Positions 4,735 to 44,392 of a stretch of DNA of 64,000 nt are shown here, piece by piece; the first letter of the stretch is position 1; the number at the start of each line of letters is the position of its first letter. A program made the position numbers and the translations under genes. The DNA is taken from IMG/VR virus record IMGVR_UViG_3300025267_002170; one strand, 5' to 3'. The notes beneath the pieces were generated by a model. It worked only from the letters and a program-made list of their open reading frames with translations, was not told the DNA's origin and made no database searches. The DNA is from a virus (taxonomy: Duplodnaviria > Caudoviricetes).

Positions 4735-5245
4735 CTCTGACCCTGTCTAGCGCCTGACTCAAGTTGAAGTATTGAATCTTTAATAGCGAGCTACAGATTA
4801 GGCCCACAAGAGTGCTATACAGGGCCGTAGACATTCCCAGCCCCAGCTTTTTGATAAGGTCTTGTATTGTCTGTATGTCCCCGATGTCGACGCTGGTAAA
4901 GCCCGAGAGCATCATGATAAAACCAGTCACCGTGCCAATCATTCCGATGGTTAAACACAGGTCGCTGGTGAACCAGCCAACCTCGATAAGATGTTCTATT
5001 TTTTCTACAAGATGGTTTTCGGTCCTTCCATCATCAAGAAACTTACTCAGTCGAAAAGTCTTGTATCCGCACCATGTGGACATGCTCACAAACAGCGCTA
5101 CTAGTACGAAACTGAGCTTTGTTACATCCTTGTCCCATAGAACGTGGAAAAACTTCGACATGGTTAATGCTACGAACGTCATGGACATTAATACCGCAAA
5201 GAGCCACCATTTAAGGAAAAGGGTATGCTGGTAGTGCTTAGTCAT
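4724..5245 (-). CDS. MotA/TolQ/ExbB proton-channel family protein
   Basis: IGMIGTVTGF and GMSTALYSTLVGL helices. Confidence 0.8.
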   Translation of the reverse strand: MTKHYQHTLFLKWWLFAVLMSMTFVALTMSKFFHVLWDKDVTKLSFVLVALFVSMSTWCGYKTFRLSKFLDDGRTENHLVEKIEHLIEVGWFTSDLCLTIGMIGTVTGFIMMLSGFTSVDIGDIQTIQDLIKKLGLGMSTALYSTLVGLICSSLLKIQYFNLSQALDRVRDEA

Positions 5246-6026
5246 CTGAAAATGTCTCCGGTGTAAGCAATGGCTGGTCTATTACTCCATCATCATATTT
5301 ATGGTATCCTGCGAGGCGCGTGTACTCTTTCTCTACGGCGAGCCTCATCTTCTCCATGTTTATTGAGAGTTCTTCTCTGAAGGCGGGGTTTTGCATAACA
5401 CTCTTTATCCAACCTGTGAATGTTTGCTTTGAGTCCTCTAATCGTTTAATACGCTGCTCTCTAGTTGCCTTTAGGTCTTTAAGCATGCCGCTCTTCTTGC
5501 CCTGTAAATCCTTATAGTCTTTACTGAGGGCTTCTATGGCGGCGCGGTATAATGCTACCTGCCTTTCTAGGTTTATCAGGTACTCGCGGTCTTGGTCACC
5601 AATAAACTTCTCTTTTTCCGTAGATATGAGGGTCTCTGTTTCATCAATGCTATTCATAGTATTTTGCTGCTCTCTAAGAGCGCGATTCATTAGAATTTCG
5701 AGCTTGATGGCATCGACGATTTGGAGTTCCTCTGTTGGAAGAACGTCATCGCGGAACTGGCCGACGATGCGCTTCCAGTGGTAGACGAACATCTTCTGCT
5801 CGTCTGTTTTGAACTGCGACTTGATTTCTTCCCAGAACGGGCGAGTCTTTAAGTCGTAGGTGGCTTCTTCTTCTTTTTCTCTGCCCATATCGAGTTTTTT
5901 ATCTATGTGCTTGGCAATGCTGGTGGGGTCTCTATCCAAGTGGGCGGCTATATCGTTAACGGTTTTGTTGATATGGTGCTGTTTAATATAAAGCTGCTCA
6001 GACTTGGAGAGTCTACCCTTCTTCAT
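5238..6026 (-). CDS. Coiled-coil protein with N-terminal HTH-like region
   Basis: Start re-called at MKKGRLSK (AGGAG upstream); IAAHLDRDPTSI helix-turn-helix-like segment. Confidence 0.7.
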   Translation of the reverse strand: MKKGRLSKSEQLYIKQHHINKTVNDIAAHLDRDPTSIAKHIDKKLDMGREKEEEATYDLKTRPFWEEIKSQFKTDEQKMFVYHWKRIVGQFRDDVLPTEELQIVDAIKLEILMNRALREQQNTMNSIDETETLISTEKEKFIGDQDREYLINLERQVALYRAAIEALSKDYKDLQGKKSGMLKDLKATREQRIKRLEDSKQTFTGWIKSVMQNPAFREELSINMEKMRLAVEKEYTRLAGYHKYDDGVIDQPLLTPETFSDD

Positions 6027-6534
6027 CGCTGGACTCCTTGAGAATCTTCTGAATCTCATTGTAAATCTGCTGGCGGCGGGGCTTGGGGACGTACACGCCG
6101 TGTAGAATCTTGAGATAATCTTCCCTGAAAGAAACATCTAGGAATTTATCTATAAGATTTACGATTTCTTTTTGTTCTACTATCTCTATGAAATCATTTT
6201 CAACGCGCATGTTGCTCTCCAACTCGTCTTTTACGCTAGATAAGTCAATGGGGTCCATGATATTTTTTTTGGCTTCATGTTTTTCATTATCGAGCCTGTA
6301 AAAATGGTCTCGTTTAAAGTTCTTCAGCCGGTTGTTTACGTGAACTGCTAGGAAGTTTTCCAGCGGGCGGTTGCTATCGTAGCGGTCAAGCGCATCCATC
6401 GCTATTATGAATGCTTCCTGTTTCATATCTTCGGCTTCGTAGTAACCAAAACGAAACTTCGCGGCTTGACGTTCAACAACCTTGTTGATTATCTGAAGAA
6501 CTTCTTTCTCCGTCATTCCGTTCGGAATCTTCAT
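6013..6534 (-). CDS. Sigma70/ECF-like sigma factor
   Basis: Region-2-like EDMKQEAFIIAMDALDRYD..RPLENFL...VNNRLKN. Confidence 0.7.
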   Translation of the reverse strand: MKIPNGMTEKEVLQIINKVVERQAAKFRFGYYEAEDMKQEAFIIAMDALDRYDSNRPLENFLAVHVNNRLKNFKRDHFYRLDNEKHEAKKNIMDPIDLSSVKDELESNMRVENDFIEIVEQKEIVNLIDKFLDVSFREDYLKILHGVYVPKPRRQQIYNEIQKILKESSDEEG

Positions 6535-6728
6535 CATCATCATCCAGTATGGCCTTTGCTTTTTCTGGGGAAGGGTCTGGCTGATTAAGTTCAGCCTCTA
6601 CCTGCTTCTGCAAGCTCTCCGATGCTTTTGTTTCAAGTTTGCTATCGACTTTGCTAGATTTAACCAAGGTTCTTGCCTTTTTAAAGAAATGTGACTATAT
6701 TATACTATACCCGCAAACGGAGAAAAGC

Positions 6729-6917
6729 ATGCGATTAACGGTGGCTGAAAAGAAGTTTATTCGAGCGACATGGGAACTGTATAATGATACGTATATTGCC
6801 GTGGCCTTGAACAAGGTGCGGCAGGAGCGAGGAGAGAGGAATCTATCAGAGCGAACTATCGCATCTTTTAGACTAAGAGAGGGGCTGCGGAGGAACATGC
6901 GGCGCGAAGGAGGCTAG
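6729..6917 (+). CDS. Small basic HTH-like protein
   Basis: GGAG RBS then MRLTVAEKKFI...RLREGLRR; divergent from the left block. Confidence 0.55.
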   Translation: MRLTVAEKKFIRATWELYNDTYIAVALNKVRQERGERNLSERTIASFRLREGLRRNMRREGG

Positions 6918-7236
6918 TTTAGCTGATACTATCAAAAATATTTTTGTCAATTGCGTTTGAACCCCCCCGACTTTCTACCTATTTTACGCAAGTAATGCAC
7001 ATTGACAAAAAACTACCCTATAGTCTAGTCATAGTCTGTTTCCGAGTCGTAGTCCTAAGTCTAGTGTCACCAAGAGGTTATATCCTAGTACTACTGCCGC
7101 GACGTAACTCCTTTGATACCAACGACTTACGTCTATTTCGACAAAATTCTGGAATTCGTGGCCGTTGGGCTGTCATCTGCCGATACTAGTCAGTAGAATG
7201 GGGCAGTCAAGCAACAAGGTAGTAGAGGAACGACAC

Positions 7237-7296
7237 ATGGAGACGCTTTTCTTGGTGGCGCTGGTGGCAATCATTTACGAGGGACTCTTGTCATAG
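7237..7296 (+). CDS. 19-aa hydrophobic micropeptide METLFLVALVAIIYEGLLS
   Basis: GAGG RBS, downstream of the cassette promoter. Confidence 0.55.
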   Translation: METLFLVALVAIIYEGLLS

Positions 7297-7339
7297 GCGC
7301 CGATTGACCGGGACACAACAGACACGCAAGGGGCACGCA

Positions 7340-7438
7340 ATGCAGACCATTATCATCACCACCATGCTGGCCATGATTCTCGTTCCGATTATCACGCTGG
7401 GCGTAATGGACGCCATTAGGCATCCGTGGGGCAAGTGA
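7340..7438 (+). CDS. 32-aa membrane peptide (family e)
   Basis: AAGGGG RBS; paralog of the N-terminus of 13635..13886. Confidence 0.7.
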   Translation: MQTIIITTMLAMILVPIITLGVMDAIRHPWGK

Positions 7439-7636
7439 AGAGACGCGCGACGTAACTCCTTATCTGACAAGGGGTTAGGGCGCGGCCGTACTGCGCGAAC
7501 GTAACCCCTTTGATATCAACGACTTACGTCGATTCCAACAAAATTCCAGAATAGGTAGCCATCGGGCTATGCAAGCGTCGATACTAGTCGGTATACTGTA
7601 GCAGTCAAGCAGTCGTACTTACTAGGGAGACGAGAC

Positions 7637-7696
7637 ATGGACATCGTTACCATCGGGCTGGCAGCCGCTCTACTCTACCTCGCTCTCAGCCACTAG
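7637..7696 (+). CDS. 19-aa membrane peptide MDIVTIGLAAALLYLALSH (family a)
   Basis: GGGAG RBS; length and motif conserved in paralogs at 8672, 9702 and 12992. Confidence 0.7.
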   Translation: MDIVTIGLAAALLYLALSH

Positions 7697-7842
7697 GGGG
7701 CTACGCGACGTAACTCCTTATCTGACAAGGGGTTAGGGCGCGGCAGTACTGCTGCGACGTAACCTCTTACATAGCAACGACTTACATCGATTGAACGTAA
7801 CTCCTTATGTGGCAAGGGTTTACGTTCGTCATGTTATTCGGT

Positions 7843-7900
7843 GTAGTCTCATCCCAACTTGCCTGCTGAGCGTCTAAGATAGTCTACAGTCAGCGTCAGC
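7843..7900 (+). repeat. Repeat family B (GTC-rich, TAGTC...GATAGTCTRYAGTCAGC)
   Basis: Copies at about 7843, 8873, 9903, 12170, 15331 and 18821; related tandem TAGTCAGCA at 21592-21624; GGTAGTCAG at 23974, 24058 and 24076. Confidence 0.8.
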
Positions 7901-8093
7901 CGGGGGCCGAGACAAGCTGTTATCTGATAAGGGGTTACGACTACGCACTACCGCGCGAACGTAACTCCTTTGATACCAACGACTTACGTCGATTCCGACA
8001 AAATTCCAGAATAGGTGGCTTGTGGGCTTGTGCCCTGTCGATAAGTCACTATAGTAGAGGACATACAACACGCAACACACACAAGGGTAGCAC

Positions 8094-8309
8094 ATGACAC
8101 GCACACGCCAACTGACTCACACCGAAACAATCGTCGACACCAACAGCAAGGGACAGCAGTTGTGCCGTCCGAAGTACGGCTTCCGGTGGACAATCCAAGA
8201 CAGCGTTGTCGCGATTGGACGCAAGCAAGAGGGTTGGACAACCTGCATCTACATCGACTGCGAACGTCGCGTCCGGGCAATGTGGGATGCCCACTACGCT
8301 GGCAAGTAG
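8094..8309 (+). CDS. Cassette protein family b (TNSKGQxLCRPKYG)
   Basis: Promoter and AAGGG RBS; paralogs at 9124 and 13343. Confidence 0.8.
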   Translation: MTRTRQLTHTETIVDTNSKGQQLCRPKYGFRWTIQDSVVAIGRKQEGWTTCIYIDCERRVRAMWDAHYAGK

Positions 8310-8507
8310 GATTGACGGCGGCGGCGACCTAACTCCTTATCTGACAAGGGGTTACGTCGCGGCCGTACTGCGCGAACGTAACCCCTTACGTACCAACGAC
8401 TTACGTCGATTCCGACAAAATTCCAGAATGGGTGGCCCTTGGGCTTGTGCCCTGTCGATAGTCTTAGTATAGTCAGGGTCATACACAACACTACTGGAAG
8501 GGTAAGC

Positions 8508-8672
8508 ATGGACGACACGGGAGTCAAGGTAGTAGGGCCAAGCAGGGACACCGACTGGCATCATCAGGTGTGGCAGTTCGGTTGGGATGGCTGGGAGTTG
8601 GTTGGGTCGTTCCTGCCAATGGGTTCGGCGGTGGCCTATGCTGAGAAGCTGGTCGATGAGGGGGCACACTGA
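8508..8672 (+). CDS. Cassette protein family c (MDDTGVKVVGPS...)
   Basis: GGAAGGG RBS; paralogs at 9538 and 12828. Confidence 0.8.
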   Translation: MDDTGVKVVGPSRDTDWHHQVWQFGWDGWELVGSFLPMGSAVAYAEKLVDEGAH

Positions 8673-8731
8673 TGGACGTACTCACTTGCGTAACGGCGGC
8701 GGCGTTGCTATGGGTCGCTCTCTCTCACTGA
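8672..8731 (+). CDS. 19-aa membrane peptide MDVLTCVTAAALLWVALSH (family a)
   Basis: TGATG coupling to the family c gene. Confidence 0.7.
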   Translation: MDVLTCVTAAALLWVALSH

Positions 8732-9123
8732 GAATCGACCTAACTCCTTATCTGACAAGGGGTTACGGCAGCGCAGTACTGCTGCGACGTAACCTCTTTG
8801 ATACCAATGACTTACATCAATTGAACGTAACTCCTTACGTAGCAAGGGTTTACGTTCGTCCTATTATCCGGCGTAGTCTCATCCTAACTTACCTGCTGGC
8901 CGTCTAAGATAGTCTACAGTCAGCGTCAGCCGGGGGCCGAGACAAGCTGTTATCTGATAAGGGGTTACGACTACGCACTACCGCGCGAACGTAACTCCTT
9001 TGATACCAACGACTTACGTCGATTCCGACAAAATTCCAGAATAGGTGGCTTGTGGGCTTGTGCCCTGTCGATAAGTCACTATAGTAGAGGACATACAACA
9101 CGCAACACACACAAGGGTAGCAC

Positions 9124-9339
9124 ATGACACGCACACGCCAACTGACTCACACCGAAACAATCGTCGACACCAACAGCAAGGGACAGCAGTTGTGCCGTCC
9201 GAAGTACGGCTTCCGGTGGACAATCCAAGACAGCGTTGTCGCGATTGGACGCAAGCAAGAGGGTTGGACAACCTGCATCTACATCGACTGCGAACGTCGC
9301 GTCCGGGCAATGTGGGATGCCCACTACGCTGGCAAGTAG
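9124..9339 (+). CDS. Family b, duplicate copy
   Basis: Identical to 8094..8309. Confidence 0.8.
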   Translation: MTRTRQLTHTETIVDTNSKGQQLCRPKYGFRWTIQDSVVAIGRKQEGWTTCIYIDCERRVRAMWDAHYAGK

Positions 9340-9537
9340 GATTGACGGCGGCGGCGACCTAACTCCTTATCTGACAAGGGGTTACGTCGCGGCCGTACTG
9401 CGCGAACGTAACCCCTTACGTACCAACGACTTACGTCGATTCCGACAAAATTCCAGAATGGGTGGCCCTTGGGCTTGTGCCCTGTCGATAGTCTTAGTAT
9501 AGTCAGGGTCATACACAACACTACTGGAAGGGTAAGC

Positions 9538-18029: not shown

Positions 18030-18578
18030 TGAGAGACAAGGAACAAGAAATTGTAACTCGTCTCTCAAAGAGAAGGGTGGACGGCTCTAAGTGGTCGTTC
18101 CCACAAAGAGTATCCTTCTCGCAAAAGACGGTTGTCCAGTTAAAGCCTTCTTCGCACAACCAGAGATAACTTCGGTTATCAATGAACGTGACAGGATTGG
18201 TAAGACAGTTTAGGATTTACGGGGTAAGGCTTACCCCGCGACCGTTTTTCACTTTCTTTGACAACACGAAACAAACACTGACAGGGTAGCTCCCTGTTGG
18301 TAGGACGGTGGCCGAACACCAAAGCTAGGCAGAGGTGGTAAGGCACACATCTAACAGAGTATGTCCAAATGGATGAGGCTGTTAGAAGTGGTACAAAGTA
18401 GGGAAGCCCTTCACAGGGTGGACATATCTGTCCCCGAAAAGTTGTGGGTAATACATAAGTCCCACCCGTCCATATACAAAGCAAGTGGGTTTGGAGTTGC
18501 CCTTTCCTCAACCTCTTGCCTCAAAACCTCACTAAGTAGTATGATGCTAACGCATGGAAGCACTTAGTGGGGTTTTTT
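18030..18578 (+). ncRNA. Candidate structured ncRNA(s)
   Basis: Promoter at 17995, C(UUCG)G hairpin, several perfect stems, long-range stem, terminator. Confidence 0.5.
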
Positions 18579-18919
18579 CGTTGGACATAACTCCTTGTTT
18601 AGCAAGGGGTTATGACCGCGCGGTAGTGCGGCGACGTAACCTCTTGCCACACAACGACTTACGTAAAATGCCAAATGTAGCTAATGCTGCACTAGACATT
18701 TTGCCGATATAGAGTATAATGATAGGCATGACTTTGAAGGGGCGGCGAGCTTTGAGAGACGTTCTACCCCGCTCGCTCTCGGCTCGTCGCCCCTGTGTCT
18801 CACCTGTTCCAGTCGGCTGAAGGTCTGGGATGGTCTGTAGTCAGCGAAAACGTTAAAGTTAGGGGTTGACAAGGGCCGATAATACCTTATAATGGGGTAG
18901 ATTGAAAAGGGAAATTGAT

Positions 18920-19207
18920 ATGCTGCCGACTGTTGAAGAAAAGACCATCATCGCCACGCTTGGAAGGGCACAGGCTCGTCATAAGATTGATGAGTACACC
19001 CACGCGATGATGACGAAGATGCACAAGGAAAACCGGCCCCTGCTGGAAGCGTTGTGTCTCATTCTTAACGAGTTCAAGTTGGACGAGCGTTCCACCTGTC
19101 ATGCCATGACCATGATGAGCCTGATGTACGACTGCCTGAATACACAGGGTGAGACTAACGAATTGCACGAGATGTTCGGAGAAGAGGGCGAGACCGATGA
19201 CGCTTAA
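18920..19207 (+). CDS. Hypothetical protein
   Basis: Promoter at 18866, AAGGG RBS. Confidence 0.7.
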   Translation: MLPTVEEKTIIATLGRAQARHKIDEYTHAMMTKMHKENRPLLEALCLILNEFKLDERSTCHAMTMMSLMYDCLNTQGETNELHEMFGEEGETDDA

Positions 19208-19415
19208 CGAATTGTGGCAAACTGCCGTGGAACACTTCCCGGCATGTCATATCACAGAAGATATTGAGGGGGAAATCGTGATTAGTACGGGCTTGATGTG
19301 GGAAGCCCCGCCGGGGTATGCCGGAGTCGGACCACAGAATGTTCCGCTTCACGCAAGGGGAAATGTTGAACTTAGGGAAATGAACGAAGGGGATTTACCA
19401 GATGTTGAGAACTGA
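19197..19415 (+). CDS. Hypothetical protein
   Basis: Overlapping operon, GAGGG RBS. Confidence 0.65.
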   Translation: MTLNELWQTAVEHFPACHITEDIEGEIVISTGLMWEAPPGYAGVGPQNVPLHARGNVELREMNEGDLPDVEN

Positions 19416-19626
19416 AGACGTTGCACGGGTTGCTAGTGACATGGGGCTGGTGCTTGACAAGAGAGTGACCATTCAGGACGGCATTACCTATCGGTATACG
19501 CTGTATGACAATAACGAGTTTGTAGAGGACTTTTTCGAGACGTTGGCACAGGCGTGGAGTTACATCTACTATTACGATGAGGAACGGGAATATGAGAATC
19601 TCAGGCCCAACATTGAATCAGCTTAG
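19402..19626 (+). CDS. Hypothetical protein
   Basis: Operon packing. Confidence 0.65.
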   Translation: MLRTEDVARVASDMGLVLDKRVTIQDGITYRYTLYDNNEFVEDFFETLAQAWSYIYYYDEEREYENLRPNIESA

Positions 19627-19864
19627 ACCACTTTTGACTAAGGCGTTGCAAACTGGTGCGGAAGTTTCCTTTATGTACCACGACAAGCGACGTAGCGGCC
19701 CACTGAAGGATTTTGGTTGGGGTCCGCAAGGCCCGTTTATCACAATTCAGGATTCCAAGTATGTGAATTGTCCCGAGGGAGATATTCCCCATACCGAAAT
19801 CAAGAGCTTCTCACTTGTCAAGATGAGCGAGTTGCGAGTTGAGCAGTTTGTGGGGACTGAATAA
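19592..19864 (+). CDS. Hypothetical protein (possible WYL/Sm-like fold)
   Basis: VSFMY..K.R ... IKSFSL.KMSEL pattern. Confidence 0.55.
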   Translation: MRISGPTLNQLRPLLTKALQTGAEVSFMYHDKRRSGPLKDFGWGPQGPFITIQDSKYVNCPEGDIPHTEIKSFSLVKMSELRVEQFVGTE

Positions 19865-20106
19865 TGGATAATGTACGTATCCAGAACAAAGACATATATA
19901 TACAGGGCGGTACTAAGGGAACCAACAAGGATGCGAGGGGTTCTGCTGACGATGTTCTATCAAAAGAAAGAGCGCCCAATGTAGAACTTTACGCGGAAAG
20001 ATGGGAGCAGGGACTAAATATTTGGACGGGTGAACCAATGACAGACATAGCGTTGACAGATTGGAAAAACCAACAGAAGCGACAGCGACGTAAACGCTTG
20101 TCCTGA
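19864..20106 (+). CDS. Hypothetical protein
   Basis: TAATG coupling; C-terminus runs into a repeat. Confidence 0.6.
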   Translation: MDNVRIQNKDIYIQGGTKGTNKDARGSADDVLSKERAPNVELYAERWEQGLNIWTGEPMTDIALTDWKNQQKRQRRKRLS

Positions 20107-20268
20107 CAGAGGTTAGGGCGGCGGCCTACTGCGGCGACGTAACCTCTTGTTATATAAGGAGTTATGGCTACTTGGTCATAATTCCTTTTTTTGTGAAGTA
20201 CGTCGGTTGACATTGCCGATATATACAGTAGAATGGGAAGCGTAACACAGAAAAGAAGGGGTAACAGA

Positions 20269-21051
20269 ATGTTGAAGTGGTCGAAAGCAAACGCGAAAAC
20301 GGAACGGCTCAACGAGAGTTGCTGGGCAATCGCCAAGTATCTTGACGACGGGCGGAAGGTTTACAGCCTCGACCTGCTGTCGGGCTATTCGTGCCCGTTT
20401 GCGGAAGCGTGTCTCTCGAAAGCGGTTGTCGGTGACGACGGCAAGCGGACAATTAAAGACGGTCCCAAGAATGAGTTCCGTTGTTTCTCCGCATCGCAAG
20501 AGGTGCAGTACACCAACGTATACAATCTCCGCAAACACAATTACGACACCCTGAAGGAAAACCAAGACGACTGGCCGTTGATGTATCTGGAATTGTGGAA
20601 GTCGATGCCCGAGAATGCCGGGATTGTTCGGATTCACGTCGCCGGGGATTTCTTCAACGAAAACTATCTCAAGGCGTGGATTCACCTCGCGAATAATCGA
20701 CCGGACGTTCTGTTCTACGCCTACACCAAAAGCCTGAAATATTGGGATGCTCTGAGAAGTGAGATTCCCGAGAATCTGGTGCTGACGGCGTCATATGGTG
20801 GGCGGGATGACTGGATGATTGAGCATTTTGATTTCCGGTTCGCTCAAGTGGTGTTCTCCGAAGCGGAAGCGGTGGACCTCGGATTGTTCATCGACCACGA
20901 CGATTCCCATGCGGCGAATCCGACGTGGCGGGACGAGAGTTTCGCACTGTTGATTCACGGGACACAACCAAAGGGAACGGAAGCGGCGACGGCGTTGAAG
21001 GCTCTCAAGGGCAAGGGGAGTTATTCTAGAAAGCAAGGGGCGACGGTATGA
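20269..21051 (+). CDS. Gp88-like phage protein (radical-SAM-related family)
   Basis: L.SGYSCPFA..C, RIHVAGDFF...Y...W, FYAYTKS, NLVLTASYG. Confidence 0.75.
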   Translation: MLKWSKANAKTERLNESCWAIAKYLDDGRKVYSLDLLSGYSCPFAEACLSKAVVGDDGKRTIKDGPKNEFRCFSASQEVQYTNVYNLRKHNYDTLKENQDDWPLMYLELWKSMPENAGIVRIHVAGDFFNENYLKAWIHLANNRPDVLFYAYTKSLKYWDALRSEIPENLVLTASYGGRDDWMIEHFDFRFAQVVFSEAEAVDLGLFIDHDDSHAANPTWRDESFALLIHGTQPKGTEAATALKALKGKGSYSRKQGATV

Positions 21052-21467
21052 CCTGTATCAACTATGATAAGCGGCTCTATGTCTACTGGAATCTCCACAA
21101 ACAAACGTGGAGTGTGAGACAGAGCGGCAAGGTGTTGTGCCACACCGACTATATCCACCTGAAGGATTGTCGGTTTCTGGTAGGCAAGGCTGGACAGGCA
21201 CGGGTGCGGCGTGAGGGCAAGAAGAACGTCCACGCTGGCGTATCGGGCTACCTTGCAATGAATGCAGAGGTTCCCACCTTCAAAGCCGACCGCGATTGTT
21301 TTGTGATGTATAACCCGTACAAGCATAATACGTTCATTCAACGTACTGGCGTGTGTGATGACCAGTATCCTATCCCGGTGACGGAATCGGAATGGGCTAA
21401 GATGTATGTTCTGGAAGGTAAGCCCACGGTGCGAGCCATAAACCACAATATAACGCAACCCGTGTAA
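21048..21467 (+). CDS. Conserved phage hypothetical protein
   Basis: VYWNLHK..WSVR, REGKKNVHA, YNPYK. Confidence 0.75.
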   Translation: MTCINYDKRLYVYWNLHKQTWSVRQSGKVLCHTDYIHLKDCRFLVGKAGQARVRREGKKNVHAGVSGYLAMNAEVPTFKADRDCFVMYNPYKHNTFIQRTGVCDDQYPIPVTESEWAKMYVLEGKPTVRAINHNITQPV

Positions 21468-21768
21468 TAGCAAGGACTTAGGGCCGCGCCCTAGGGCGGC
21501 GACGTAACCTCTTGTCATATAACGAGTTACGTCGATTAGGGTAAATTAGGCCCAGGTTTCACCTTATCCAGCCGGGTCGGTGGACATGGTGGTAGTCAGC
21601 ATAGTCAGCATAGTCAGGTAGTCGGGCGAATCTGGAATTCTCAAAAAACCTTGCAGAAATGACCTTGACCCTGCCGATAACACTTGTATAATGGGAGCAT
21701 AAGCAGTTGAGGAATAAGCGGGCGAGTGACCCGCAAACATTTTGGCCCCTAACGGGAGAGTTGAGACC

Positions 21769-22125
21769 ATGGCAGATGCGAAGAAGAGTGGCGAGAAGCG
21801 TGTTCGGGTTGCGGACGAGAACTTTGTGGTTGAGTGGGTGCGAGTTGCCGCCCTCATGGACAACGATGGGAAGCGAATCGGAACGCATCAGATGATTGCC
21901 GAATCGCTTGGCCTGCAAGAGACCAGCGTCATCCAGCGGCAGTACGCTGTCAACCGCAAGCTGACCAGCGGCGGGTTTGAGAAGTTGCCGAAGTTGCCGA
22001 CCGAAGGACGGCAGAGCGTCAACATCGCGGAACTCGCCAAGCTCGCTGGACTGAAAGCACTGGCAAAGGCCGACGAGGCCGACGCCAAGGCCGAGGCCGA
22101 CGCCGAGGCCGAAGCCCAGTCGTAG
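21769..22125 (+). CDS. HTH-like protein with Ala/Glu tail
   Basis: Promoter at 21665, GGAG RBS, IAESLGLQETSV. Confidence 0.7.
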   Translation: MADAKKSGEKRVRVADENFVVEWVRVAALMDNDGKRIGTHQMIAESLGLQETSVIQRQYAVNRKLTSGGFEKLPKLPTEGRQSVNIAELAKLAGLKALAKADEADAKAEADAEAEAQS

Positions 22126-22145
22126 CGAGCGAAACGCTCCTACTG

Positions 22146-22194
22146 TCGGGGCGGTAGCAGGTTTCTCACGGCCTGTTACCGCCCCGATTTTTTT
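22146..22194 (+). terminator. Intrinsic terminator
   Basis: TCGGGGCGGTAGCAGG/CCTGTTACCGCCCCGA followed by T7. Confidence 0.8.
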
Positions 22195-22398
22195 GTCTTC
22201 CAAGCGATTGACGTAAGTCCTTGCGTGGCAAGGGGTTGCGTCCGCGCGGTAGGGCGCCGTCCTAACCCCTTATCTGACAACGGTTTACGTCTATTCTGAT
22301 AAACTTGGCGTTTCCTGTGAAGTGGGCGGTTGACTTTGGACGATATATAGAGTACACTGGGTGAGTTGACACACTTCTTTTTTTGAAAGGGTCAGAAC

Positions 22399-23622
22399 AT
22401 GACCGACTACACGACGCTGCGACCGACCGACGACACCAAGGACGAGGGGGCATTCGTGCAGACGCTGCAAGGGCAGACCGGCGCGGGATTCCAGAAAAAT
22501 ACGCACGTCCACAAAGACTGGTGGGCACAGACGGAATCGTTCGAGGATGGACTCGAAGCGTTGGAGCAGGGCATTGCAGAACGCGAGGACGTTATGGTTC
22601 CCCGTTCGCAGATTACTCCCGCCGTCAATCTGGCTGGTGAGTTCGTCATGCAGTTGGCAGACGGGCGTGAGTTCAAGCCAACGCAACACGCCGTGAACCA
22701 GTTTGGGGTGGCTACTTTCACAAGTACGTTCTTCCTCAACTCGCTGATGACCAACCCCGAGAAGAACAACGGGCAGGAGCGATTCCAGCGGGACGAACAG
22801 GATGCCGACACGCTGGTCGCCGTTTGCGAGAATGCGTTGCGGCGGGTGGATGCGGACAAGAATTTCCGTCTCCGCACTTATCAGGACGGAACGCTCCGTG
22901 CCTTCCTCACTGAGAAGTACGCTCCGATTGACAACCGCTGGTATCTTGAGCAGTTGAGCAACATCCTTCCGGGCGGTCGGCTTTCCCACTGGCGTGGTGA
23001 TGCTGACACCATTTTTGGCAACGTGCTTCTGCCTGATACGATTATCGACTACGGGCAGGATGACGACACCGATTACGGCGGGATGCTTTCAATCGGCAAT
23101 TGCGAAATCGGAACGCGGCGTGTCTCTCAGATGCCCAGCATCTTTCGGGCTATCTGCCTCAACGGTTGCATCTGGGGACAGACCAAAGGGAAATCTATCT
23201 CCAAGGTTCACCGTGGCACGATTGACCTTGACGGGCTGGCTTCCGATATCAGGAAGAATATCGAAGCTCAATTGCCGCTGCTGCCGGATGGCATCGAACG
23301 GTTCCTCGGCATCAAGGTTCATACCTGCGATGAGGTTTCCATGAAGAATCTCATCGGCGCGGTTTGCACCGACAGGAAGCTCCGCAAAAAGGAATCGACT
23401 GAGGTTCTGACTCAGTGGGTTCAGCATGAGCGGACTGACCGTAACCTGTTTGGAATCGTGAACGCGGTTACCCGCGCGGGTCAAACTCTGGACAACACCA
23501 GTTGGGTCAAGTTCGACGAGATTGGTGGCGACCTGATTGGAATGACCGAGAACCGTTGGGACGCTCTCAAGAAGCGTGCCGATACTTACACTGAGAAGGA
23601 AATCGAAGCGGTTTTCGTCTAA
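22399..23622 (+). CDS. DUF932-like protein
   Basis: RAFLTEKYAPIDN, ISIGNCEIG-like segment, IFRAICLNG, FGIVNAVT. Confidence 0.7.
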   Translation: MTDYTTLRPTDDTKDEGAFVQTLQGQTGAGFQKNTHVHKDWWAQTESFEDGLEALEQGIAEREDVMVPRSQITPAVNLAGEFVMQLADGREFKPTQHAVNQFGVATFTSTFFLNSLMTNPEKNNGQERFQRDEQDADTLVAVCENALRRVDADKNFRLRTYQDGTLRAFLTEKYAPIDNRWYLEQLSNILPGGRLSHWRGDADTIFGNVLLPDTIIDYGQDDDTDYGGMLSIGNCEIGTRRVSQMPSIFRAICLNGCIWGQTKGKSISKVHRGTIDLDGLASDIRKNIEAQLPLLPDGIERFLGIKVHTCDEVSMKNLIGAVCTDRKLRKKESTEVLTQWVQHERTDRNLFGIVNAVTRAGQTLDNTSWVKFDEIGGDLIGMTENRWDALKKRADTYTEKEIEAVFV

Positions 23623-23624
23623 AC

Positions 23625-23711
23625 GTGGACGGCACAGCATCGGAGGCTTTCGCCTTAGTATTGTGTGCGTGCTTTGTCATTAGTGGCTTAGTCGTACTTC
23701 TCAAAGACTGA
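23625..23711 (+). CDS. 28-aa membrane peptide
   Basis: GTG start just after the upstream stop; hydrophobic; followed by a terminator. Confidence 0.4.
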   Translation: MDGTASEAFALVLCACFVISGLVVLLKD

Positions 23712-23715
23712 CCCC

Positions 23716-23748
23716 AACCCCCCCGCAACGTGCGGGGGTTTTTCTTTT
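23716..23748 (+). terminator. Intrinsic terminator
   Basis: CCCCCGCA-ACG-TGCGGGGG followed by a T tract. Confidence 0.8.
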
Positions 23749-24099
23749 GGTATGTATAAGAGTTGACGTAAGTCCTTATCTGACAAGAGGTTACGTCCGC
23801 GCGCTACCGCGCCGACCTAACCCCTTTGACACCAACGACTTACGTCGATTCGCCGGAAAGCAAGCATCTTCCAGTAGCGAACTGTACTAACGCCCTATAC
23901 TAACGTAGTCTGGTCAGATTCGAGGCCGAGCAAGTAGTGTCTTTGCTAAGCAAACCAGATACGGTTAATTTAAGGTAGTCAGCACTTTCGCGTATCCGAG
24001 TGTATATTAGTGCATAGTCGGGGTATTTCCTAAGCCATCCAGATTGGTCTAATGTTGGGTAGTCAGCACTTTTACGGTAGTCAGTTATACTAACCTAAG

Positions 24100-24309
24100 T
24101 CACAGGACTTCTGGGGTCAGTATAGGACTGCATGGAGACCCGGCTACCTCCAGAGACAAGGCCCAGTTGACCTCTTTGCCACAAGCCTCAGTAAACCTCT
24201 TAGCGCGCTTATCAGCCTCTATATCAACGTCAGAAGTAGTAGTCGCACAGTATCGCCCGCCATTACGAACATCGCCCTCACTGTCTACGAGGATAATTTG
24301 GTAAAGCAT
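24100..24309 (-). CDS. Hypothetical protein, the only convincing minus-strand gene right of 7 kb
   Basis: GAAGGG RBS and a minus-strand TTGACC-16-TATAAT promoter at about 24375-24402. Confidence 0.6.
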   Translation of the reverse strand: MLYQIILVDSEGDVRNGGRYCATTTSDVDIEADKRAKRFTEACGKEVNWALSLEVAGSPCSPILTPEVL

Positions 24310-24506
24310 TATGTCCCTTCTTATTTAACCAGATTGTTCCAATGTAAGTCAGTCAGCAACTTTGGCCCGTGTATCATTATAGTCGGGACTATCCCCCGGT
24401 CAAGGGAATCTGGAAAATCTTGGGAAAAAGCGGAAACGGGGTATAGACTTATATGCCAATTGCCGATACAATAGGGTAGACAACGACTTAAAATAAAGGG
24501 GATGAA

Positions 24507-24776
24507 ATGCACCAGCCAGTAGATGATAGACTAATAGAAAAGATTCAGGTCAAGATACTAAACAGATTGGGAAAGCCGCCGGGCCTTATGTCTGTACATT
24601 GTGTCAACGTGTTTGATAACAACTGGAGAATTAACGTCTGGACTAAGGGGATGACTGACGCTGGTGTACCAACACATGAAATTACTCACAGTTTCTTCTG
24701 TGAAATGACCAAGGGGGGTACACTCAGGTGCAACCCGAAGATAGAAAAAATATACTATAGCAAAACAAAGGCGTAG
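24507..24776 (+). CDS. Hypothetical protein
   Basis: AAGGGG RBS; NVFDNNWRINVW motif. Confidence 0.7.
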   Translation: MHQPVDDRLIEKIQVKILNRLGKPPGLMSVHCVNVFDNNWRINVWTKGMTDAGVPTHEITHSFFCEMTKGGTLRCNPKIEKIYYSKTKA

Positions 24777-32497: not shown

Positions 32498-32900
32498 AAT
32501 CGGATTCACCTGCTCCTGTTTTGACTTGCTTCACGCAGGGCATGTCGCTATGCTGGAGGAGGCTAAGAACAATTGCGAACATTTGATAGTCGGGTTGCAA
32601 ATAGACCCGAGCCTAGAAAGGGATGGGAAAAGTAAACCCATACAGTCTCTAGTAGAAAGGCAGATACAGCTACGAGCCTGTAAATATGTTGACGAGATTA
32701 TAGTATACAAAACAGAAAAAGATTTAAAGACAATACTAAAAACGCTACCAATAAACATAAGATTCTTAGGAGAGGAATATACAATAGAGAACTTTACTGG
32801 AAAGAAACTGTGTAAAGAAAAAAGGATACGAATCTACTACAACAAGAGAAGGCATAAGTTTTCGTCTTCTGAATTGAAGGAAAGGATTAAAGATGTCTAG
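32481..32900 (+). CDS. Cytidylyltransferase (TagD-like)
   Basis: FDLLHAGH, KYVDEI, SSSELK. Confidence 0.9.
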   Translation: MEPKPKIGFTCSCFDLLHAGHVAMLEEAKNNCEHLIVGLQIDPSLERDGKSKPIQSLVERQIQLRACKYVDEIIVYKTEKDLKTILKTLPINIRFLGEEYTIENFTGKKLCKEKRIRIYYNKRRHKFSSSELKERIKDV

Positions 32901-33486
32901 ATTTGATGCTCCTGTTGAGGAAAGAACTCTCCATAATTACATTGACGAAGCTAGGTCAATGATTGGGAGGTGGGGTCAGATGTGGATGCTAACAGATGAT
33001 GACGTTATCGCAAACGTAGCAAATGCCATTATGAGAGCAGAACACGACTTCGACCCAACGAGAGGATGTAAGAGGGTGACGCTTAGGTGTACCTACGGAC
33101 GTAGGGCTATCATTAAAGAGTTTAGAACCCTTAACAGACTATCAAAAAGACCAACACATTTTTCTATAGATGTAGAACGGATTGGAAACGACGGTCGTGT
33201 ATATTCAAACGCAGCAAAAGAAATAGAAGACCACAGAGAATCGATAGAAGAGTACATCAACAAAAAGGAAGAGGCCACTAAACAGAAAAGAATAGCTCAA
33301 AAGGTTCTTAAGAACAAGTGTCTTACAGAAAAGCAGAGAAAATATCTAAAGATGCACTACCTTAAAGGAAAGAGCGTAAGAGAGATAGCTCAAATTAGGG
33401 GATGTAGCAAGCAGGCAGTTAGTCAGGTTCTTCAAGGGGGTCTATCTAGCCTGCAAAAAACATTCGTAGGAAAGGCGGTAGCATAA
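32893..33486 (+). CDS. Sigma70-like sigma factor
   Basis: FDPTRG in region 2; region-4 HTH LTEKQ...SVREIAQIRGCSKQAVSQ. Confidence 0.8.
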   Translation: MSRFDAPVEERTLHNYIDEARSMIGRWGQMWMLTDDDVIANVANAIMRAEHDFDPTRGCKRVTLRCTYGRRAIIKEFRTLNRLSKRPTHFSIDVERIGNDGRVYSNAAKEIEDHRESIEEYINKKEEATKQKRIAQKVLKNKCLTEKQRKYLKMHYLKGKSVREIAQIRGCSKQAVSQVLQGGLSSLQKTFVGKAVA

Positions 33487-42801: not shown

Positions 42802-42989
42802 GTCTTATTTATAAGTGTGACGAGAGTATGGGAGATTTCCATTGGGAAACTAAAGCCTATACATCTACGGGGAAAAAAGAAGTATCTATAATTCAAACTT
42901 GGTTTGATGGGACCGAGACTGTTTCTAAACAAACAGTAGTTCTTCTTTCTGATGAATTTATAGAAATAGCAAAGAAGCTATAGACAACT

Positions 42990-43061
42990 GCCCCCGTAGT
43001 TCAACGGTTAGAACGCCGTTCTTATAAAGCGGTAACGTGAGTTCGACTCTCACCGGGGGTA
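42990..43061 (+). tRNA. tRNA-Ile(UAU)
   Basis: Full cloverleaf; anticodon arm CCGTT-CTTATAA-AGCGG; T arm GTGAG-TTCGACT-CTCAC; CCA not encoded. Confidence 0.9.
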
Positions 43062-43217
43062 TTTAAAATGATGAAGACCTGTTTACATTTTGCTTATTGT
43101 TTGTGTTGGATTACGGCTGTGGTTAGCTTTATTTTCAATGGAAACGTATCAGAATCGAATTACTTCATACTTTGGGGTATAGTAAACTATCTACTATGGA
43201 GAGACGCTAAATAAAAT

Positions 43218-43552
<335 letters not shown>

Positions 43553-43600
43553 CTATGATTAATTTGTTGGACTGTTTGGAAATTTTGGAAGGACACCTAA

Positions 43601-44301: not shown

Positions 44302-44375
44302 GCCCTCGTAGCTCAACAGGACAGAGCAACGGTCTTCTAAACCGTAGGTTGCAGGTTCGAGTCCTGCCGAGGGTA
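44302..44375 (+). tRNA. tRNA-Arg(UCU)
   Basis: Cloverleaf; ACGGT-CTTCTAA-ACCGT; GCAGG-TTCGAGT-CCTGC. Confidence 0.95.
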
Positions 44376-44392
44376 CTGAGAGAGGTTTTGTA

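Follow-up and report, generated by a model that had tools for sequence, protein, structure and literature searches.

Paired dyads in a repeated candidate early-promoter module along a 17-kb array of small genes in an uncultured phage

In T4-type phages, promoter early stem-loop (PeSL) elements join a stem-loop and an A/T tract to an early promoter that is followed by a Shine-Dalgarno (SD) sequence and a start codon, and they cluster in plastic regions of the genome (PMC2839356, PMC4122927), where they have been proposed to drive modular shuffling via recombination (PMC4122927). A comparable arrangement is found in the window analysed here, the 64-kb stretch of the viral record IMGVR_UViG_3300025267_002170, in which 26 copies of an element composed of two dyads around a GC-rich core punctuate an array of small genes at 7055-23843. 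The array is of the PeSL kind in architecture and evolutionary behaviour, and it is classed here as neither an integron-like system nor a categorically new mechanism. The reading favoured here, to which a probability of roughly 0.55 is assigned, is that the repeats form a PeSL-like composite early-promoter module, that the dyads bind a dimeric protein, possibly of the integration host factor (IHF)/HU type, and that the array grows by homologous recombination.

As with PeSLs, the repeated unit is a composite cassette located between small, mostly unknown genes, and it offers homology for gene gain, loss and exchange; the array site lies among small variable genes, and a tandem duplication within it ends at the module. 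The PeSL set of A/T-rich tract, strong sigma70-like promoter, SD sequence and start codon follows 20 of the 26 copies. In contrast with the simple terminator hairpin of PeSLs, the element here is a pair of 9-7-9 dyads of fixed geometry around a GC core, the terminators are separate and all copies occupy one 17-kb block. The dyads are, in addition, conserved across distant relatives and common to bacterial mobile elements, and the phage is no recognisable relative of T4, despite carrying rIIA and rIIB.

Other described systems share single traits with the array. The host-takeover module of phage SPO1 has sites for TF1, a phage HU-type protein, at early promoters, and IHF sites lie upstream of lambda pL and Mu Pe. 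The array resembles these in its dense, strong early promoters for host RNA polymerase, its small genes and its nearby (here candidate) sites for DNABII (IHF/HU-type) proteins, but its relatives have no DNABII gene and its sites, which are symmetric and paired, show much stronger conservation than IHF sites usually do. The repetitive extragenic palindromic (REP) sequences and bacterial interspersed mosaic elements (BIMEs) of enterobacteria, some of which bind IHF, are likewise intergenic palindromic units, often paired around a linker, that follow genes and have copies in host chromosomes; the phage copies, however, are clustered and syntenic, and no link to a REP-associated tyrosine transposase (RAYT) was apparent at the loci examined. 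Integron arrays have a similar gene-site-gene layout, with attC sites that are four-arm imperfect palindromes, whereas the cassettes described here are self-promoted, lack an integrase, attI and Pc, have arms without attC core sequences and show a homology-driven crossover. Finally, the stoperators of the temperate mycobacteriophage L5, which are 13-bp asymmetric repressor sites, also occur in many intergenic copies with a single orientation to transcription, and gp82-like and GP88 cargo families are common to both phages, but no repressor or integrase was found here.

Repeat finding and an nhmmer family profile located the 26 full copies, all on the plus strand and 76-88 nt long (E-values of 1e-13 to 1e-26). 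The profile also detected three single extra dyads (7797, 8827 and 9857) and no further copy elsewhere in the 64-kb window. A 22-base skeleton pattern gave 33 matches against 0.00 expected from shuffles, and the bare dyad skeleton gave 44 against 0.28, with 43 of the 44 lying within the array. The sequence-only reading that preceded this analysis had described 26 copies in the same orientation and none outside the zone, and the profile agrees with it.

7055..7130, plus strand: element copy 1 (dyad A, GC core, dyad C)
7452..7527, plus strand: element copy 2
7710..7785, plus strand: element copy 3, promoterless, followed by a third dyad and a TAGTC module
7797..7823, plus strand: extra single dyad
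7912..7987, plus strand: element copy 4, first arm unusual
8329..8404, plus strand: element copy 5
8740..8815, plus strand: element copy 6, promoterless
8827..8853, plus strand: extra single dyad
8942..9017, plus strand: element copy 7, equal to copy 4 in sequence, junction element of the tandem duplication
9359..9434, plus strand: element copy 8
9770..9845, plus strand: element copy 9, promoterless
9857..9883, plus strand: extra single dyad
9972..10047, plus strand: element copy 10, left part like copies 4 and 7, right part like copy 17
10254..10329, plus strand: element copy 11
10902..10977, plus strand: element copy 12
11350..11425, plus strand: element copy 13
11795..11870, plus strand: element copy 14, preceded by an intrinsic terminator (11761-11783)
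12058..12133, plus strand: element copy 15, with a TAGTC module between it and the promoter at 12258
12663..12738, plus strand: element copy 16
13156..13231, plus strand: element copy 17
14355..14430, plus strand: element copy 18, at the head of a ~600-nt non-coding cassette
15120..15195, plus strand: element copy 19, variant arms (the same in the L202 orthologue), preceded by a terminator (15082-15101)
16787..16862, plus strand: element copy 20
17626..17701, plus strand: element copy 21, first arm holding the stop codon of the open reading frame (ORF) 17438-17629
18587..18662, plus strand: element copy 22
20090..20165, plus strand: element copy 23, the most diverged
21455..21530, plus strand: element copy 24, with TAGTC repeats between it and the promoter at 21665
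22213..22288, plus strand: element copy 25, behind a terminator with a 19-bp stem (22145-22188); its syntenic counterpart in relatives lies upstream of their DUF932-like gene
23768..23843, plus strand: element copy 26, behind a terminator (23720-23738); its syntenic counterpart in relatives lies downstream of their DUF932-like gene

The geometry is constant in all copies and comprises a 10-nt arm, a 7-nt spacer, a 10-nt arm, a GC-rich core of 22 nt and a second dyad with the same 10-7-10 arrangement. Each dyad displays the invariant skeleton TAA-N4-TT-N7-AA-N4-TTA, and across 40 aligned copies only its TAA, TT, AA and TTA are invariant, whereas the spacers and the core are free to vary; the invariant positions agree between the profile of the 26 window copies and a profile of 101 copies from relatives. 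Elements start 0-25 nt after the upstream stop codon, with one overlap in which, as had been noted for position 17627, the ORF ends on the TAA of the first arm of copy 21. The number of dyads per promoter is one, two or three, with three per unit at 7710, 8740 and 9770. The 9-7-9 dyad is the basic unit, because one close relative (L060) has a GC hairpin and the right dyad only, and another (L061) has a different small dyad before the same promoter.

The true repeat is the whole intergenic module of about 150-180 nt (~170 nt), which extends from the element through an A/T-rich linker and a promoter into the first part of an AC-rich leader that bears an AAGGG ribosome-binding site. In some copies the module begins with an intrinsic terminator; it continues through one to three 9-7-9 dyads around the GC-rich core into an A/T-rich, UP-like linker, and ends with a strong sigma70 promoter bearing a CGATA box and the AAGGG-containing leader. 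Nearly every small early gene or gene group is thereby given its own predicted transcription unit. The earlier statement that almost every copy is followed by a promoter applies to 20 of the 26 copies, which precede a sigma70-like promoter, and fails for the other six (7710, 8740, 9770, 12058, 21455 and 23768), which are followed by a TAGTC-rich non-coding module instead. Promoter hexamers score 9-12 of 12 matches, and 39 promoter-like sites were counted against 15.9 expected. The -35 hexamer has no fixed place relative to the element, their distance varying by about 35-85 nt. Terminator-like sites number 17 in total; none of the 26 elements is among them, and separate canonical terminators lie just upstream of at least four copies (11761, 15082, 22145 and 23720).

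8028..22358, plus strand: 16 CGATA-box sigma70-type promoters linked to the element, with -35 starts at 8028, 8445, 9058, 9475, 10089, 10381, 11019, 11467, 11900, 14471, 15215, 16904, 17733, 18693, 20207 and 22330
12258..21692, plus strand: at least seven strong promoters without an upstream element, with -35 starts at 12258, 13573, 13873, 15411, 17995, 18866 and 21665
7858-7909, 8888-8939, 9918-9969, 12151-12226, 15312-15387, 18785-18849, 21540-21600 and 23939-24362: TAGTC/AGTC repeats

The promoters form a class with a CGATA box in a 16-17-bp spacer and a G-run after the -10 hexamer (10381-22358 in the window and loci L008-L062), and this class is conserved across the whole phage clade, dyad-less loci included, which suggests an extra specificity determinant. 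The TAGTC/AGTC-rich sequences constitute a second, strand-polar repeat family that lies after promoterless elements or between two promoters and may be a site or promoter for a phage sigma-like factor. Two ORF-poor cassettes, 14504-15118 and 18028-18580, show DNA-level conservation in contigs from metagenomes, with 92% in L210 and 84% and 88% in L202. As the DUF932-like gene on the same L202 contig is 84.5% identical, so that the identity of the cassettes equals or exceeds that of the gene, the two cassettes are likely to encode structured RNAs, judging from their sequence conservation.

Homologues of the DUF932-like cargo protein occur on 48 IMG/VR contigs at 45-57% protein identity, and a profile search revealed diverged element copies, mostly in gene sense, at 39 of the first 62 loci. 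These copies display the same two-dyad layout with a core longer by 4 nt, and share the UP-like A/T tract and CGATA promoter of the window. Of 48 loci, 32 have an element 83-127 nt ahead of the DUF932-like operon start, and 30 of 45 have one downstream of the DUF932-like gene; since this placement is kept in distant relatives, the element sites are old and syntenic, and the module is inherited vertically at fixed positions in the phage lineage. Two complete relatives, one of 166.6 kb with 10 copies and one of 161.1 kb with 12, have all of them inside one GC-raised stretch of ~17 kb. At loci devoid of the element the same promoter and UP tract are present, placed immediately behind the upstream gene or a plain GC hairpin, and the element is thus an accessory to the promoter. 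In L061 (1545-9311), whose GP88 protein is 88% identical, the paired dyads are replaced by another module of ~180 nt before the same promoter; this module combines a GC hairpin that has a T-run with a small 7-5-7 dyad, and the locus also has a second promoter type with an extended -10. The orthologous copy in L202 has kept the odd arms of its window counterpart, while its spacer and core have changed. The exact window-type full element was absent from IMG/VR and from 185,579 prokaryote genomes.

Searching the same 185,579 genomes with the right dyad of the relatives identified 79 stretches, against about 4 expected by chance according to our own arithmetic for 19 fixed bases. Ten of the 79 are phage-type contigs in assorted bins of metagenome-assembled genomes (MAGs), and only these share cargo genes with the window; the others are bacterial, mostly from Planctomycetota together with one Latescibacterota chromosome. 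A control with the reversed pattern gave no match in four genomes. At L098, L122, L126, L116 and L119, all from Planctomycetota MAGs, the dyad follows a tRNA-Glu, tRNA-SeC or tmRNA gene at a distance of 0-5 nt from its 3' end, and in three of these MAGs it separates the tRNA from the 3' end of a tyrosine integrase gene; tRNA-Glu 3' ends are among these sites. The converging integrase gene is Pfam-confirmed at L098 and L126, and a C-terminal motif suggests that the L122 neighbour is likewise a tyrosine integrase; this arrangement points to a family of integrative elements with the motif at the integrase end. The dyad is also found upstream of the promoters of an IS1595 transposase and of a six-copy DDE_5 insertion sequence (IS), and in intergenic repeats behind housekeeping genes. 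In the Latescibacterota chromosome (G006) the dyad and a poly-C tract occupy the upstream region of about 30 paralogous surface-protein genes of the leucine-rich repeat (LRR)/YWTD type. At L088 and 14 further G006 loci a common upstream region of ~800 nt has the dyad directly followed by a variable C13-C20 tract, and these LRR and YWTD-propeller genes could be a phase-variable surface-protein family. Dispersed copies number ~30 in the Latescibacterota chromosome, six in a Rubripirellula genome and at least seven in each of two Planctomycetota MAGs. A literature search on the arm sequences returned unrelated primers only.

In the reading preferred here, a dimeric protein that binds or bends DNA would recognise the dyads as double-stranded sites and so tune, insulate or shut off the early promoters, and geometry and context make a host IHF/HU-type (DNABII) protein the leading candidate reader. 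The skeleton corresponds to a symmetrised IHF core (CAA-N4-TTR), with its TT and AA steps exactly 9 bp apart. The invariant AA-N4-TTA of the second and fourth arms matches this core, and a C precedes the AA in 23 of 26 second arms and 22 of 26 fourth arms, whereas the WAT part of the Escherichia coli IHF consensus is absent from the dyad. In the IHF-DNA structure the two kink steps are ~9 bp apart and TTR lies 6 bp from the nearer kink (PMC5829579). The dyad fits this structure by spacing, the TT and AA being candidate kink steps in a purely geometric comparison. IHF-type sites are classically located in attP arms, at IS ends, upstream of phage early promoters and in some BIMEs, and the contexts in which the dyad occurs are these same contexts, which points to an IHF/HU-type protein as its candidate reader. 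Each dyad-bearing bacterial genome encodes two or three DNABII proteins.

Several observations weigh against this reading. No DNABII gene was found in the phage relatives, and the small candidate regulators of the window (6729-6917, 21769-22125, 17175-17438 and 24507-24776) gave no match to a DNA-binding family in Pfam. The arms extend beyond the IHF core, with GTC/GAC preferred beside TAA/TTA, and reach about 13 bp; an ordinary sequence-specific dimer is about as likely as an IHF-type reader. The variable distance to the -35 hexamer and the six promoterless copies exclude the element as a position-dependent activator site of the classical type. Of 201 sampled Planctomycetota genomes, 13 have the strict dyad, against 3 of 201 for the reversed control, and this sparseness argues that it is not an abundant core-genome site; such a sparse, patchy spread is, at the same time, the expectation for cargo of mobile elements. 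Finally, single copies fold well as RNA, with z-scores of -1.4 to -5.2 and minimum free energies of -31 to -40 kcal/mol, and an alternative model with one long hairpin has slightly more paired cells and covariation than shuffles, the observed value being reached in 1 of 500 and 2 of 500 of them.

On the folding data the main rival, though a rather doubtful one, is that the element acts at the RNA level, as a read-through long hairpin of outer arms, 7x7 loop, inner arms and GC core that would serve as a 3' stabiliser, an RNase III-type site or a weak terminator or insulator. RNase III-type processing sites do exist between T7 early genes, the elements lie close behind upstream stop codons, all window copies are in the sense orientation, and three of five window copies folded adopt the long hairpin, whose inner helix reaches 87% pairing and shows compensatory changes from clade to clade. 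The outer helix, however, is only 73% paired, three arms have changed in concert in the window clade while the fourth has not, and the third and fourth arms are conserved though poorly paired. In a two-hairpin model covariation was no greater than in shuffles, and a strand test of G-U against A-C mismatches gave opposite signs for different arm pairs. The elements have no U-tract, and the real terminators preceding at least four of them imply that those copies would rarely be transcribed. In bacteria the dyad is present in both orientations as well as upstream of promoters. Rfam hits in the window were confined to the tmRNA and two tRNAs, with none at the elements, and the bacterial dyad gave none either. 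Recognition of double-stranded DNA by a dimer is therefore favoured, on account of the invariant bases, the lack of two-hairpin covariation, the poorly paired yet conserved arms, the separate terminators and the L202 copy. It is unlikely, too, that the dyad is primarily a non-autonomous repeat of the REP/BIME type or of the miniature inverted-repeat transposable element type, spreading among phages, IS elements, islands and Planctomycetota-type intergenic regions and regulating only secondarily. Genome-specific families of dispersed dyads, some behind housekeeping genes, would suit such a repeat, as would the inverted ends of the element, which reach ~12 nt, and the many Y1 transposases encoded by dyad-bearing bacteria. 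The phage copies, in contrast, are clustered in one region and syntenic, no target-site duplications were seen, the six Y1 transposase loci inspected are flanked by other palindromes and not by the dyad, and the large bacterial families consist of IS copies or of paralogous genes together with their upstream regions rather than of free dyads.

The sequence-only reading had also proposed that cargo is duplicated, deleted and reordered at the repeats, by a recombinase or by homologous recombination. Its picture of a modular early region with self-promoted mini-cassettes and paralogous cargo holds, five paralogue families recurring within the array, and cargo order differs, as it anticipated, between the window and relatives L060, L061, L046 and L202. 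In the site-specific version of that proposal the dyads, 13-7-13 with their flanks, would be core sites for a tyrosine recombinase acting in trans, for example from host islands, and the array an integron-like platform in a virulent phage. The geometry is the same as that of lambda-type core sites, the dyad adjoins tyrosine integrase genes in the three Planctomycetota MAGs, cargo differs among relatives and copy 10 is a mosaic of two other copies. A dedicated shuffling machine of this kind is nevertheless highly improbable. No tyrosine recombinase, serine recombinase or Y1 transposase was found in five near-complete (94-100%) element-bearing relatives, the tyrosine recombinase search (PF00589) being positive in 14 of 14 control genomes and in none of the five. 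The same dyad also adjoins unrelated DDE transposases, each cassette has its own promoter, no attC-type core is present, and the sites are syntenic between phages at 45-57% protein identity. Most dyad spacers are unique, above all from 15120 on, so that most dyads would lack a compatible partner for a tyrosine recombinase. The only datable event is a 1030-bp duplication:

7908..9967, plus strand: two tandem 1030-bp units, cassettes 4-6 copied as 7-9
8901..8945, plus strand: 45-nt tract of perfect identity that holds the duplication crossover and ends before the dyad spacer

At the middle junction the downstream parent is matched to 8900 and the upstream parent from 8946. The crossover thus falls in 8901-8945, which excludes an exchange in the spacer for this duplication, and a crossover in an identical tract is what homology-driven unequal crossing-over predicts, in keeping with the homologous option of the sequence-only reading. 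Genes have also moved without the element: homologues of 17175-17438 and 19197-19415 sit within other operons in three relatives, and because the genes flanking them are directly adjacent here, donor and recipient breakpoints are free of the element. Breakpoints were thus found to be independent of the element, the outcome under which, by the sequence-only reading's own account, it would be only a regulatory operator. In the favoured reading, it is proposed instead that duplication, loss and reordering of cargo result from general homologous recombination over the ~170-bp modules and other short identities, in line with the proposal made for T4-type PeSLs. A RecA/UvsX homologue is present in all five near-complete relatives, and this enzyme would recombine the modules.

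The best explanation of the window as a whole is an uncultured marine phage of roughly 150-170 kb in which the array is an early (host-takeover-type) region. Its genes include rIIA, rIIB, sigma-like, sugar-modification and ribonucleotide reductase genes, two tRNAs and a tmRNA, and the cargo and border genes of the array that could be assigned or traced in relatives are as follows.

20269..21051, plus strand: cargo gene of the GP88 family (PF17338, E-value 3e-35)
21048..21467, plus strand: cargo gene, mycobacteriophage L5 gp82-like (PF25735, E-value 6e-27)
22399..23622, plus strand: cargo gene, DUF932-like, 407 residues, the anchor for finding relatives
17175..17438, plus strand: cargo gene, four-cysteine protein of 87 residues, in another operon in relatives
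6013..6543, minus strand: divergent sigma-70 region-2-like gene, left border of the array

Sigma-like or helix-turn-helix genes flank the array at 6013-6543 (minus strand), 5238-6137 (minus strand) and 32893-33486 (plus strand), and transcription of the first of these points away from it. Hydrophobic mini-ORFs of 19-48 residues with good ribosome-binding sites, several of them paralogous pairs, are numerous at 7237-14349, within the first 17 cassettes. The G+C content of the array is 49-55%, against about 40% in the rest of the window, and early arrays lie 10-12 points above the rest of the genome here (8000-24000), in G001 (140-160 kb) and in G002 (155-161 kb and 1-12 kb). Neither a near-identity search of the array nor a protein search with the DUF932-like gene gave a match in the cultured phage collection, and no cultured phage has a terminase more than 27% identical to that of a relative (best about 25-27%). 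Most of the array is present in 18 marine DNA metagenome runs, whose contigs are short and interrupted at repeats; their many joints have short sides and are mostly repeated modules mapped to the best copy, and RNA contigs from public runs overlap the array and carry no information on ends or strands.

The tmRNA gene (43218-43553) encodes the nine-residue tag AEKQFALAA and is accompanied by tRNA-Ile(tat) and tRNA-Arg(tct) at 42989-43062 and 44302-44376. The tag resembles those of Planctomycetota, such as AEENLVLAA of a Pirellulaceae MAG and ADESLALAA of Rubripirellula. Because of this likeness, the common dyad and the AAGGG ribosome-binding site, there are hints, suggestive only, of a planctomycete host. 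Assigning a host from the MAG bins that hold the phage-type contigs was rejected, as these bins are scattered over many phyla.

The CGATA-box promoter, the paired dyad and the raised G+C content together provide an early-region signature for an uncultured clade of large marine and freshwater phages. The dyad ties these phages to IS elements, integrative islands and surface-protein families of Planctomycetota and Latescibacterota, two phyla for which, to our knowledge, almost no phage biology has been described. If the dyad is the site of one conserved protein, it would constitute a new and easily scanned regulatory code of phages and mobile elements and a handle for host prediction. The array itself is a natural example of gene-accordion evolution of early genes, achieved through repeated promoter modules and plain homologous recombination.

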